Below are positions 9,001-24,000 of a DNA stretch of 64,000 nt, in pieces. The DNA comes from a virus. Its lineage: Duplodnaviria > Heunggongvirae > Uroviricota > Caudoviricetes. Every line of letters starts with the position of its first letter. The stretch's first letter is position 1. Position numbers: made by a program. The stretch lies in the IMG/VR virus record IMGVR_UViG_2877962823_000010, one strand, 5' to 3'.

Positions 9001-12000
9001 TGAGCAGAAGGTGAATCAATGACCTGGCCTGAAGCATTCGCAAATGTAGGAACAGTAATGGCGGTGGTGCTGGTTGTGTATTCGATTTGTCGCTGGAGAT
9101 AAAAACGGTTTGCGGGAAAAGGAGAGTTAAGTAGAATTGCTGCGGGTGCTTGAGGCTATCTGCCTCGGGCATGAACACCAACGGCAGATAGAGAAAAGCC
9201 CCAGTTAACATTACGCGTCCGGCAAGACGCTTAACATTAATCTGAGGCTCAATCCATGCTGAACACATGTAGGTTAGCCTCTTACGTGCCGAAAGGCAAG
9301 GAGAAGCAGGCTATGAAGCAGCAAAAGGCGATGTTAATCGCCCTGATCGTCATCTGTTTAACCGTCATAGTGACGGCACTGGTAACGAGGAAAGACCTCT
9401 GCGAGGTGCGAATCCGAACCGGTCAGACGGAGGTCGCTGTCTTCGTAGACTACGAATCTGAGAAGTAAGAGACCAAGCGGGGGAGTAATCTCCCGCCACC
9501 TCTGATGTGTCAGGCATCCTCAACGCACCCGCGCTTTACCATACTGAAAATGCTGTTTGAATGTTCATCTCTGAAAGAGGACTATGAATGAAAAAGGTAT
9601 TGATTGCAGCACTTATTTCTGGTGTGTCTTTTGGCGCTTTTGCACAGCAGGGCGGTTTCCAAGGGCCTGAAGCAGAGCGTTCAACAGTAGCGCAGGCAAA
9701 AGAACTGAAGGATGATGCATGGGTTATCCTTGAAGGGAGCATCGTTAAAAAAGTGGGTGATGAACGTTATGAGTTTCGTGACAATAGCGGGACAATTGTC
9801 ACGGATATCGATGACAGCATATGGGCCGGTCAGAATGTTTCTCCGAAAGACAAAGTAAGAATTGAGGGTGAAATTGATAAAGACCTGAGCAGTGTTGAAG
9901 TGGATGTAAAGGCACTGAAATTATTAAAGTAACCGTCCCAGCTTGCTAAGCCCGTCTTACTGACGGGTTTTCTGTTTGTTATCACAGTATTTTTCAACAA
10001 AACACCGAATCTTATCCGGTGCGCTGTAAAACCCCGTCCTTCAGGGCGTGGAGGATGTCAAATGGCGTATATTTGGATATAAGAAAGCCATCCAATACTG
10101 GCTGAAAAAACTCCTCATCGATATCATCGTGGGCCTGAATAGTTCCATCCGCAATTCTGATTGCCGGTATTGTTCCCCGGCGATAAGGGGTGAACATCAT
10201 CCCGGTTACATCAGATCGCCTAATAACATATCAAGATTATTTTGCTCATAAATGCTATTCGCCATTACCGTTGCTGCTTCAGCTTAATGAAACGCATAGA
10301 TCCGCCATGCTTTTTCAGCAAATACGCTGCCATTTGCGCAACTTTTTCTTCATTAAACATAAATCGGCTCTCTGTATCACATGAAATGCTCTTCTGACTA
10401 TATGTTAATAGCTCCGGTTATTACAGGTCAATGAGTGTTTATTTCTTAATCAGCCCCGCACTTCCGTACGGGGCCATTTCTGTTAATCCACTCCCACTTT
10501 TTTGTTGTACTCGCGGTTAAACCGATCCACGGCAATTTTCATATCCCGCTCTACCGATTTCACCATCGCCGACTGTTGCGCCAGACTGAGAGTACTGTCG
10601 GCGTAAATGGCATCACGCTGTTTACGCAAATCCTTCAGTCTCTTCCGGGTATCCTGCATAAGCCCGTTCATCGACAATTTTCCGTTGTTCTCGTCAATGA
10701 ACGCCGTTCTTTCTGCACCGGTCAGACTCTTCAGCTCTGCGTGATACTGCGCAATCTCTGTCATCCGGTCGTACATCTTCTGCTGGTCTGCATACGGCAT
10801 CACCTCCCCCGAAATTTTCCCCAGGAAGGGCACCTGCTGTTCCGGTATATCAATACCATTCAGCGATTTCACCGCCGCATCCGTGGTTTTGGAAATGAAG
10901 CGCCCTGTCCCTCCGGAGATATAGTCAATCCAGAATTTCAGCGATTCCGGTGTGATATCCACCGCGCCGGGACGGTACTGGCTGCCACCTGAGAACGCAT
11001 TCAGCCAGGATGCAAACGCCTTGTACGCTTCTGGCGTTGAACGTCTTCCCAGCTGGCTGTCAGGTTTTGGTGTACCAAACGGCATGTTCTCCTGGTAAAT
11101 CTGCGCCCCCATGAAGTTTTCATTCATGGCAAGGTTCGCAAACGGACGCAGAATGGTCGGCGCTGCATTTTTCAGCAATGCCCCGGACAGTGTTTCCGAC
11201 GTCTCACTGCCAATCGGGCTGAATGCACCAAGCACACCACCAACAACATTACCGGCAGCACGGGACGCCGTCAGGTCACCCGCCGCCACACCTTCAGCAG
11301 TATGCCCGAGCAGGAAGAAAACGTTGTACCCGTAAGGCAGAGGAATACTCCAGTACTCTCCGGCCTTGCCCCCGAACACCGATTTCATAATGACGAGGTT
11401 ACGCTCTTTCACATGAGACGGCACCTTGTCATACCAGTTAACCCCGTCATCATCCTCACCCGCCACGCTGCGGTTAAGCGAGCCAAGCAGATAACCTGCT
11501 CCCACAGCGGCAAGCGCGATTTTCTGCGGAACATTCAGATTCTTCCAGCGAAGGCGCTCCAGTAAAGGTCCCTCACCATTAAGATGTCCGAGCGTTCTCA
11601 CCAGATTTGCCGTTCCCTGAATGCTGGCGTTGGCGAACATGTACAGCGAATTCATCAGCGCCCCCTGCTCACCACGACGGTTAAAGTTCACCGTCATGTT
11701 TTTGGCAAGAGACGCCGCCTGCTGGCGTGACAAACCGGCATCACGGGCGTGCTTATAGGCAGAAAGACGCAGAGCGTTTTCAACCGCACCGTTGGCATCC
11801 TCGACAAGGTTAAGGAACGAATTCCATGCACCGATACTCTGGCCTTTCCATCCCCCCTTCGCCAGTGAGACAAGGCGATCCATTTCCTTCTGCTGGCCTT
11901 CAAGGTCACCCATGTTAAACCAGCCGGTTTTCCCTCCGTCCTCAACAAACTCTTTCCACACCTTCTGCCACTGTGCACCTTTTCCCGTGAGGGTTTTACC

Positions 12001-21000: not shown

Positions 21001-24000
21001 ACCGCCAGCCTTATGCATCGCATATGCACCTGCCGCACCCAGACCAGCGCCAACAAGAGAGGCTCGCCCCTGCTGTTTCGTAAACGCCGCCTGTGCATCC
21101 GATTTAGCTTTTGCCAGACTGCTGTCTGCCAGAGAGTTAAAACTCTGTAACGCATCCGCCTTCTGACCAGAACCGAGAGCAGCAACATCCTGTAGCCCGG
21201 CAACATACTTATCTGCCTGCGATACCTGCCCCCGTGTGGTTGTGTCAATCTGCCCGGTTACCTGGTCACTCTGGTTCGCATTCATTACCGCATTAAAACG
21301 ACCACTGGATGGGTCAACGCCGGACTGAGCAAGATTACCCGCAAGCTCCTTCCGTGCTTCGCCAAACTGTTTCTGATACCCCAGATTTGTGGTGCCAGCA
21401 ATATTGTCGTACTGCTGCTCACTGTTCAGGTCATCGACCTTTTCCATGAAGTTATCTTCAGCCGGGCGGAGGATATTTTTGTAATCCTGCCACCCTTTCC
21501 AGGCCACTTCTTCCTGTGCTATTTGCGCTGCTGTTGGTTTTACTTTGGTATCACCACCGCCTTTACTTCCACCCATAATGGCCCCCTGGATAACAAAAAA
21601 CCCTGCCGGAGCAGGGTCAGAATGTGAATTACAATGTTGGTTTAAACACAATGATGAAAACTGTAGCAGTCAGACCGCTATCCTGAACACCATGAAGCCA
21701 TCCTCATCATCCGGCATTCGCTCAAAGCCCAGTCGTTTTCCCAGCCGGATAAATCCCCGCCTTGCCGTATGGAACTCAGCCCAGCGTCCGCCAGCCAGAT
21801 GGGTTAATGTCTTCACCTCCGGCAGGTAACGCTCAACGCTGTTACTCCCCGTACACACGCCCAGCAACACCAGAACATAAGGGATACCATCAGCACTGAG
21901 CACAGAACGCAGCACCAAAAAGCCATCAGGTGCCTCAAAACAAAACGCCTGCTTTTTAAGGCAGGCGTCTTTAACTTCATTCATAAATTCAGGGTTGCGG
22001 GAATTTCTCACAACACGCTGCATATACCAGAGAATTTTATCGTTCATTCTCTCACCTGAAACGGGTGCCATATCGGCTGAACCTCAGCAACCAGTTGACG
22101 GGGACTCTCGTCCCCGTCGCGGTTTTCCTACTGCTTACACTGTAAGAACGCCGCAAACTCCGCTCCCCACAAATTCAGCCGGAACTCACACAGTGAACCG
22201 TGCAACATCCAGATGGTGAAGATAACCGTCATGCAAATTGTGACGGTGATAAGCGATTTTTGCGACATAGCGCTTGACTCCTTTTACAGAGAGGCGCTAA
22301 CCTTCTACTTGCTTAAGGTACGAAGTGTTAGGGCCTCGGGTTAACGTTAAGTTGACTCGGGGCCTTTCCACATCAGGCCTTCAGGTTCACCCTCCAGCCA
22401 TCAGCCGAAAGGCACCCACGCATAATTTACGGTTTTTGCCCTGTACGGGCAATAAAAAACCCGCCATCACAGCGGGTAGTAAACGGTTACCGGATACAGG
22501 TCAGAATTTCAGGCCAATGCCAGCAGTAACGCCACTCGTGCGCCAGTCGCCAGAGCCGGAACCTTCGTAAGCCACATCCAGTGTAACACTCTCATTCAGG
22601 TTAAACTGTGCACCTGCAGCCCACGCAAGGGAGGTTTTTTTCGTGCTGTTGCTTTCAGAAAATCCGCCACTACTGTTAATATTGTCCTTAATTTTCAGGT
22701 CAGCGCTAACTTTAGCAACGCCCATCCCTGCCATCGCATATAAACTCATGTACTGATTAACCCGCCATGAAGGCCCCGCTAACAGACTCCAGTAATTCGC
22801 CCTGATATCCGTTCTGGCAGAAGCTGCCGGATTCTTAATCTTCCTGGTATGATCGGCTGACTGCACATCAATAAATGTCTGTGAGTTAGTGAGAGAACGC
22901 GTCCATGTAAAAGAGGTGATAACGCCAAAATCATCCGTTATCTCGTAGCGATACCTGATATTAATGCCCTGTGGATTTTTATCCTTGCCTTCATATCCAC
23001 TGACCCGACCATCTGTATATTCGCCCAATGAAGAAAAGTAGTTTCTGTTGACGAAATGACTGAAAGTCTCCCTGTTATGAGCAGTCGCATCCTTTACAAA
23101 ATCCTTCAGTCCCGGAAACTGAAAGTGCGCATACCCCAGAGAAATTGTATGCTCTCCTTCTGCTGCATGTGCAGATAAATTTACACAGGCAATCCCGGAG
23201 ATTGCACACACAACCAGTGTTGCTATACTCTTCATTTAAGATATCCTGTATTCAGATAACACGCTAAACTTTTTAATAATACATCTTTTTAGACATTTTA
23301 AATGAATATTAAAGACTCGCTTCAACTAATCATATACTGATGTATTAATAACCAGGACCTTATCTATATACGGCTTTCGAATATCCCATGTTGCACCACC
23401 GGAATAATGCTCACAGGAATATATTTTATTTCCTGTAGCACCAGTGGATGTGGTATAAATCGGTCGATCATAAGGAGTTCTTTTCCAGTTATAATACCCG
23501 ACCAGTGCAGGCATGATTGCGCATGGATATCCAAGGTCCTTTTCAAATTTGATATCAACAGGTATTAACTTCGCGTCAAGCAGCATCATTTCGCCATGAT
23601 AAATCATCTCACCGTCCGGGTTATACATGGCGATACCATACTCAGAAGGTGGAGTAACCATATTCGCGAAAGCATAAACCGTCGTAACACCAGGGTTCGT
23701 TCCCCTGACAATTACATGAAGCCTTAGTGCATGATATCCATCAATCTGTTCATGCGTGTACATGACATCGGCCTTCTTCTCTGTTCTGATAAAGAAAAAA
23801 CAACTTTTGCCTGACGGGATTGATGTTTTAAAAAAAGACTTTTCAGTCGCCGGTATGGTGCCTTTGTTGATCAGACACTGCGGCGTAAAACCTGGACTTA
23901 TCCATACGCTGCCATCCGGCTTCATAATGCTCAAACCGTACATAACACTTATCCCCAGAATGTATAAATATAAGATCCCATACCCTGCTCAAGATTCGAC

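Follow-up and report, generated by a model that had tools for sequence, protein, structure and literature searches.

Is the giant protein encoded behind the tail genes of a tailed phage carried in the virion and delivered into the host, and what would it do there? The question is raised by an open reading frame (ORF) of 2806 codons in the 64,000-nucleotide stretch of DNA analysed here (IMG/VR record IMGVR_UViG_2877962823_000010, Caudoviricetes; hereafter the window), whose product, the giant, had been proposed in a preliminary description to be a multidomain 'polyvalent' protein that is packaged and delivered with the phage DNA to counter host defences. We find it likely that the giant is an internal ejection protein of the 933W/Sp5/phi24B-type Shiga toxin (Stx) podoviruses, belonging to the polyvalent class and consisting of a conserved frame with swappable enzyme cargo. 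This reading is carried by the domains of the giant and their conservation, by the packaging of a full-length orthologue together with the products of the four genes upstream, and by the synteny of the gene cassette, all of which are documented below.

The evidence for packaging comes from phage phi24B, whose gp47 (vb_24B_48, ADN68472; a 2811-aa ORF) is 97.1% identical to the giant, and whose purified virions have been studied by cryo-electron microscopy (cryo-EM) and by gel-slice and batch proteomics (bioRxiv 10.64898/2026.04.10.717836, 2026). In that preprint, gp47 accounts for 10,962 spectra, a number exceeded only by the capsid protein, and its peptides cover residues 382 to 2787, including the peptide with the HEWFH motif and peptides from the low-complexity linker; it is not part of the cryo-EM reconstruction. 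The products of all four upstream genes were detected in the same virions, with 1634 spectra for the 421-aa protein (peaking in the gel slice that fits its size), 523 for the 218-aa protein (whose C-terminal segment also yields a peptide), 129 for the 148-aa protein and 13 for the 83-aa protein, which the authors of the preprint treat as a contaminant. Both the packaging of the giant and the suspected packaging of the four upstream products with it are therefore borne out in phi24B. Crude copy numbers, which are our own unpublished estimates, were calculated from the batch spectra divided by protein length, with the portal fixed at 12. The values for the nozzle (6.3, true value 6), an adaptor (11, true value 12) and the spike (22, true value 18) serve as calibration, and the same calculation gives about 23 copies of the giant and 30-50 of the 421-, 148- and 218-aa proteins.

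The domain content of the giant agrees with the proposed polyvalent class. A domain scan, suggested earlier as a check, identified the Pfam families LPD5, LPD1, MuF_C and LPD38, all above the gathering score and all with models derived from the polyvalent proteins that Iyer, Burroughs, Anand, de Souza and Aravind (2017) described; the HExxH motif noted at the outset lies in a zincin domain. Like the proteins of that class, the giant is a very large product of a late-gene context that joins unrelated domains, including those of LPD type, in one polypeptide, and it combines LPD5, LPD1, LPD38 and MuF-C/PBECR with a zincin metallopeptidase (MPTase); the giants of Vibrio, Ralstonia and Burkholderia phages share its setting among late and virion genes. 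It differs from the catalogued class in that DNA-modifying, ART, kinase and ArdC-type domains are absent from it. The motif HEWFH is located exactly where it had been placed, but a second motif, HEIIH, had been overlooked: 0.037 HExxH motifs are expected by chance from the composition of the giant vs. the two that are present, and both are conserved in homologues. The long low-complexity regions were also correctly recognised, and consist of a Gly/Ala-rich stretch (aa 100-500), an acidic stretch (aa 400-700) and a Pro-rich stretch (aa 700-900); the linker at about aa 450-1000 matches no Pfam family. The LPD5 domain is modelled as two beta-meander-plus-helix units, and a short Foldseek match of 67 aa to Pur-alpha (probability 0.99, though E = 0.19) is only a hint that it might bind nucleic acid.

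The first HExxH motif belongs to a zincin domain that is probably of the CLCA_X type. The NCBIfam model NF041907 (CLCA_X) matches aa 1195-1450 of the giant over 243 of its 250 profile positions (E = 2e-43), although its 148.6 bits are below the curated whole-protein cut-off of 260 bits. In an alignment of 50 sequences (the giant and 49 homologues, 26-89% identity), H1297, E1298, W1299, H1301, D1304, E1388, A1391, R1392 and E1395 never vary and H1276 is almost invariant, such that HExxH is accompanied by a conserved acidic third ligand downstream, and the modelled structure has a zincin fold that matches anthrax lethal factor. The common phage-type MPTase of Iyer et al. (2017) has a His that ends strand 2 and an Asp three residues past HExxH, and the residues conserved here follow the same pattern. 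Given this match, HEWFH, the interval between LPD5 and LPD1, and LPD1 itself are best read from the alignment as one zincin domain in which LPD1 supplies the Glu helix; the metallopeptidase module that had been suspected is thus supported by the catalytic residues and the predicted fold. Lenart, Pawlowski et al. (2013) defined CLCA_X, a family of zincin-like proteins with HExxH and a conserved Asp that is sister to the self-cleaving N-terminal metalloprotease of CLCA; its members are mostly from phages and plasmids and are often very long proteins. In the giant, it makes up a single domain of the protein. Neither HExxH motif lies within a Pfam match, and nine overlapping windows searched at E up to 5 gave no peptidase family near either of them. 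A match to Peptidase_M76 near an HExxH was at chance level and was dropped. A Foldseek search of the central model against the PDB gave nothing at E below 0.01, and phmmer found no match of the whole giant among PDB sequences.

The second motif lies in a separate zincin-like domain (zincin 2), in which the H, E and H of the motif and E101 of alignment A3, a Glu 52 residues downstream (AGEFLAH), are invariant in 11 sequences. This domain is 33% identical to that of a Vibrio phage giant, which has the HExxxH variant HEILAHH. Among 124 related giants searched with hidden Markov models (HMMs) of our own making, 81 have a zincin-2-like domain ahead of the C-terminal module, with a median gap of 257 aa. 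The profile of zincin 2 run against PDB sequences returned spurious summed matches to protein A repeats and Spartan at E = 0.8, which were rejected. Between zincin 2 and the C-terminal module, a match to the MuF_C model coincides with a predicted BECR-like fold. His1764, S1786/T1788, H1812 and S1830 are conserved in 8-10 homologues and are candidates for the published catalytic His (N-terminal part) and Ser/Thr (C-terminal part) of such domains; given the conservation of His1764 and of several Ser/Thr residues, the domain may be active.

Comparison of the Stx giant with the giant of Vibrio phage 1.205.O shows which parts are retained. The N-terminal region (aa 143-421) is 29% identical to aa 95-372 of the Vibrio protein (E = 1e-27), and zincin 2 and the C-terminal module are also conserved, whereas LPD5-CLCA_X and MuF-C are not. 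This difference indicates a conserved frame, consisting of the N-terminal region of about 400 aa, zincin 2 and the 900-aa C-terminal module, with swappable cargo in the middle of the protein, which in the Stx giant is the LPD5-CLCA_X zincin and MuF-C. A homologue search with the N-terminal region found only fragments from E. coli and Salmonella. Among the 124 related giants, CLCA_X was identified in 29, LPD5 in 24, the N-terminal region in 8 and MuF-C in 7.

The C-terminal module can be treated as a single unit. It is modelled with confidence (pLDDT 84.6, pTM 0.81) and contains hydrophobic helices near aa 2458-2480. Searched against 1.84 billion cluster representatives, the module gave 8565 matches at E ≤ 1e-3, of which 4762 were at E ≤ 1e-30. 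Among the best 150 of the 8565, the match ends at the C-terminus or within a few tens of residues of it wherever that end is present, and the full-length proteins range from 1042 to 5181 aa. Many environmental phage proteins cover 98-100% of the module at 33-58% identity and carry other N-terminal domains (ART, methyltransferases, InPase, PBECR1). Unlike LPD38 as catalogued, the 189-aa model is only part of a 900-aa module that lies at or near the protein end in the closest relatives. On one metagenomic phage contig (L004) the module is a separate gene of 1042 aa, with about 140 residues ahead of it, and is the last gene of the late operon; the genes upstream are fibre-like and not homologous to the Stx cassette. 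The contexts of short LPD38 proteins on the Amphritea and JGI contigs, which are prophage remnants or odd elements, were uninformative on function. On one element, an LPD38 protein of 1124 aa (L005, 10001-13375; L006, 544-3918) follows directly after the small and large terminase genes and a 197-aa gene, at the place where a portal is expected; this element also encodes a PemK-like toxin, a resolvase and a primase-helicase, and is perhaps a satellite or what is left of a prophage.

Among cultured phages, the module was found in Stx phages (97-100% identity), marine Vibrio phages (about 41%), Ralstonia GP4-like phages (about 27%) and Burkholderia Bcep22-like phages (about 27%), and the portal, capsid and nozzle of these groups are of the same lineage as those of 933W and phi24B. 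In the Bcep22, JC1 and GP4-like phages, the giant (Bcep22 gp75, JC1 gp69 and relatives, annotated 'DarB-like antirestriction protein') has the same module (27% identity over about 85% of its length), is the last big gene of the virion operon and is virion-associated by mass spectrometry, as determined for the Bcep22-like phage JC1. The cargo of these giants differs, with an N-terminal SLT lysozyme, a DarB-like methylase/helicase and LPD3 but neither LPD5-CLCA_X nor MuF-C. The 4545-aa giant of Ralstonia phage Heva (L009, 3087-16724) joins an SLT lytic transglycosylase at its N-terminus with an Eco57I-type methylase, a helicase, LPD3 and the module, and in effect unites a lysozyme like that of T7 gp16 with a unit of the P1 DarB type.

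All four upstream genes that had been described at 18934-21576 are present, and with a further gene in front of them and the giant behind they form a six-gene cassette (133, 218, 148, 83 and 421 aa, giant) that, by sequence comparison, is conserved in distant marine Vibrio phages. Vibrio phage 1.205.O has the same gene order, with proteins of 131, 201, 117, 77 and 442 aa followed by a giant of 3130 aa, and each of the five small proteins matches its counterpart (E = 8e-6 for 133 vs. 131 aa, at the same position; E = 1e-13 for 218 vs. 201 aa; E = 3e-4 for 148 vs. 117 aa; E = 2e-10 and 44% identity for 83 vs. 77 aa; and E = 6e-11 for 421 vs. 442 aa). A further match of the 218-aa protein is to Bcep22 gp70 (E = 1e-6), which carries the annotation 'virion-associated'. 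Upstream proteins of Gly-zipper type had been anticipated, and the 83-aa protein does match Pfam Gly-zipper_YMGG (E = 9e-6), but its 25.7 bits are under the cut-off of 28.9; Gly/Ala-rich hydrophobic segments that resemble its own are found in the C-terminal segment of the 218-aa protein and at aa 419-446 of the giant. No Pfam or NCBIfam family was found for the 421-, 148-, 218- and 133-aa proteins. The 133-aa protein is absent from the virion proteome table of phi24B, and may act in assembly or loading without being a structural component. At a position comparable to that of the 133-aa gene, Bcep22-like phages encode an acyltransferase, but the two showed no similarity in sequence. The coordinates of these genes and of the domains of the giant are listed in Table 1.

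Table 1. Features of the giant and of its upstream cassette. Positions refer to the window and residue numbers to the 2806-codon ORF.
Feature	Residues	Position	Strand	Basis or remark
Giant ORF, 2806 codons		10483..18903	minus	8.4-kb gene
Probable coding sequence of giant, 2793 aa	from Met14	10483-18864	minus	
Terminator-like hairpin and T-run		18882..18901	minus	just 5' of probable start
Conserved N-terminal region	143-421	17641..18477	minus	hydrophobic segment at aa 194-221
Glycine-zipper-like segment	419-446	17566..17649	minus	weak Pfam Gly-zipper match, E 0.03-0.08; hydropathy peak
Low-complexity acidic and Pro-rich linker	about 450-1000	15904..17556	minus	composition
LPD5	1064-1213	15265..15714	minus	Pfam PF18799, E 6.5e-45
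Zincin domain 1, CLCA_X type	1195-1453	14545..15321	minus	C-terminal part is Pfam LPD1
HEWFH motif, then SLD	1297-1301	15001..15015	minus	
LPD1	1374-1453			Pfam, E 1e-23
Zincin-like domain 2	1486-1677	13873..14448	minus	HEIIHH and downstream Glu helix (AGEFLAHMAE)
HEIIH motif	1564-1568	14200..14214	minus	
MuF-C, phage BECR-fold (PBECR), predicted RNase	1763-1852	13348..13617	minus	Pfam MuF_C, E 1.3e-17
C-terminal module	1900-2806	10486..13206	minus	mostly helical, one compact unit (predicted)
LPD38, within C-terminal module	2489-2694	10822..11439	minus	Pfam PF18857, E 7.7e-48
421-aa Gln/Asn-rich protein		18934..20199	minus	phi24B gp48, virion protein; 100% identity to phi24B
83-aa protein		20210..20461	minus	C-terminal glycine-zipper hydrophobic tail; 100% identity to phi24B
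148-aa protein		20471..20917	minus	phi24B gp50, virion protein; 98% identity to phi24B
218-aa protein		20920..21576	minus	phi24B gp51, virion protein; 98.6% identity to phi24B
133-aa protein		21670..22071	minus	first gene of conserved cassette

The ORF of 2806 codons is present as described, but its product is probably shorter. The first ATG (18903) is contained in a hairpin (18901-18882; CCCGGC-cattgt-GCCGGG, then T7), the second ATG (18864) has GGAG 5 nt ahead of it, and both the profile PHROG 616 and the homologous genes as called in E. coli and Salmonella start at MAY..., from which we conclude that translation probably starts at Met14 and yields a protein of 2793 aa. The first 13 codons of the long ORF (18864-18903) overlap the hairpin and T-run and are probably untranslated, and the 'leader peptide' in the GenBank record of phi24B probably stems from the spurious N-terminus of the long ORF. 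The giant had also been described as ending the late operon; because a 62-aa ORF (10012-10200) follows on the same strand, it is the last large gene of the operon, but not strictly the last gene.

At the DNA level, the giant gene is 100% identical to that of VT2-Sakai (Sp5), of the Stx1-converting phage of strain Morioka V526 and of many other Stx phages. At an identity of at least 90%, it was identified in 186 phage records. Of 5426 complete E. coli genomes, 426 carry it, some in as many as five copies; E. coli Sakai has it in Sp5 only, for which reason a tentative assignment of the window to Sakai prophage Sp15 was abandoned. RefSeq/PGAP names the product 'LPD5 domain-containing protein' or 'LPD38 domain-containing protein' (NP_050570.1 in VT2-Sakai). 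Its exact sequence is thus already in databases with a family label attached, and the gene has been annotated, the families were described in 2013 and 2017, and presence in the virion was reported in 2026. Comparison with phi24B gp47 and with VT2-Sakai/Sp5 orf71 (NP_050570.1) shows the same gene order as in the window and no difference of substance.

The window contains two copies of a 1310-bp insertion sequence (IS) that are 99.9% identical (25993-27302 and about 44386-45695) and encode IS3-family-like ORFs of 108 and 296 aa. The first copy is an insertion relative to VT2-Sakai with a 3-bp target duplication, and it splits a 567-aa gene into two ORFs (25507-25980 and 27300-28523). The split gene appears to correspond to the nozzle of phi24B, and the prophage copy in the window is probably unable to make a tail of its own. 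The ends of the window (1-6572 and 57429-64000) match each other with 94% identity and 401 mismatches, offset by 57,428 bases, which is a diverged duplication and not a circular wrap; the two may be lambdoid prophage segments that lie next to each other or in tandem. A lom gene (Ail/Lom outer-membrane protein, 22501-23235), apparently a moron, separates the tail genes from the ejection cassette, and a terminator-like hairpin is located at 22459-22477.

In its arrangement, the cassette resembles T7 gp14/gp15/gp16 and N4 gp50-gp52, which are likewise clustered internal virion proteins with the largest one last, located in the head and absent from the symmetric map; N4 gp50, the virion RNA polymerase, is also a giant cargo carrier with a zincin domain. 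The cluster of the window follows the tail genes, and the orthologues of its products are found in virions, outside the ordered map. No sequence or fold homology to any characterised ejection protein was found, and with no sequence similarity the likeness to the T7 and N4 proteins is functional and positional, not one of family. Under the ejection reading, multiple copies of the giant would be held inside the T=9 head and, once the needle is released on infection, would exit by way of the tail, accompanied by the small glycine-zipper proteins. The hydrophobic and C-terminal parts of the giant, together with these small proteins, would enter the envelope and help to build or pass a trans-envelope channel. 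The zincin adjoining the C-terminal module, perhaps with CLCA_X, would then cut the polyprotein or host proteins, and the cargo enzymes could be freed to act in the cell early in infection. Self-cleavage of the giant is suggested only by analogy with CLCA and by the argument of Iyer et al. (2017).

Several observations weigh against this reading. The cassette proteins and the central and C-terminal HMMs showed no similarity to T7 gp13-16 or N4 gp51-54, and the HMMs showed none to N4 gp50. No ejection protein of solved structure matches the C-terminal module, neither Pfam nor the PDB sequences yielded a match for zincin 2, and the Stx giant contains no peptidoglycan hydrolase domain. Because the gp47 spectra are mostly in the top gel slices, the packaged giant is largely unprocessed, and self-cleavage is not seen there. 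As the apparent nozzle gene is split by the IS, the giant of the window may never be packaged by its own phage. Exit from the capsid and entry into the cell are steps that we infer, and the peptidase and RNase activities are only predicted.

The readings that compete with an ejection protein differ in what they make of the enzyme-like domains. If the giant served chiefly as an accessory effector against host defences, as P1 DarB does, its packaging would serve only to neutralise restriction, CRISPR or other immunity of the host, and DNA could enter hosts without defences in its absence. The definition of the polyvalent family as conflict effectors (Iyer et al. 2017), the DarB-like methylase/helicase, ART and RNase cargo of relatives with the same module, and the predicted BECR RNase domain of the Stx giant itself all agree with such a role. 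However, Pfam scans found no recognised anti-restriction domain in the Stx giant and, in particular, no match to the N6-adenine methylase/helicase that is present in the Heva giant; moreover, the module is far more conserved than any cargo, occurs nearly stand-alone as the 1042-aa protein, and travels with one portal/adaptor/nozzle tail type. In coliphage PTXU04, knock-down of a 2198-aa LPD38 protein impairs infection of the laboratory host, and the fact that efficient infection requires this protein even there argues for a central part in ejection and against a purely accessory one. We therefore regard a mainly anti-defence function as rather unlikely, and an anti-defence role of the giant is at present speculation.

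The phi24B preprint instead proposes a conduit whose peptidase digests peptidoglycan, that is, a purely structural protein with the HExxH domain acting on the cell wall. The SLT lysozyme that a Ralstonia relative carries on the same frame indicates that wall cutting is possible in such proteins, and no other wall hydrolase was found among the phi24B virion proteins. The proposal is based on calling MuF-C a metallopeptidase (section 5 of the preprint), a label that is unsupported, as MuF-C has a BECR RNase fold, is not a peptidase, and the HExxH domains are located elsewhere in the protein. The zincins resemble protein endopeptidases (lethal factor, MtfA, PPEP and the self-cleaving CLCA) and not known wall peptidases, and LPD5-CLCA_X also accompanies RadC and ART cargo in other polyvalent proteins, all of which makes a wall-digesting conduit improbable. 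That the enzyme-like domains are inactive relics, and the giant only an internal filler or scaffold of the T=9 head, would fit its abundance and largely full-length state in phi24B virions, and MuF-C of phage Mu itself is considered inactive (Iyer et al. 2017); however, the catalytic residues of both zincins and His1764 are kept across homologues at only 20-50% identity, and we consider this explanation very improbable.

To what was known, the analysis adds a map of two zincins and an RNase-fold domain, a correction of the MuF-C label and a probable start codon, together with the frame-plus-cargo architecture, the terminal position and family size of the module, and the conserved six-gene cassette. 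Stx phages create enterohaemorrhagic E. coli, and their entry into the cell is poorly understood; about 14% of an Stx phage genome is this one gene, which 8% of complete E. coli genomes carry. The domain map gives concrete mutational targets for the question of whether Stx phages inject enzymes as well as DNA. Beyond the Stx phages, we tentatively raise the possibility, itself doubtful at this stage, that the C-terminal module, usually preceded by a zincin, is an unrecognised and widespread ejection frame with which one lineage of T=9 podoviruses would load roughly 20 cargo copies per head (several megadaltons), the peptidase at the junction freeing the cargo in the cell. If this is true, the ejection frame would be a protein-delivery system in its own right, and not only a conduit for DNA.

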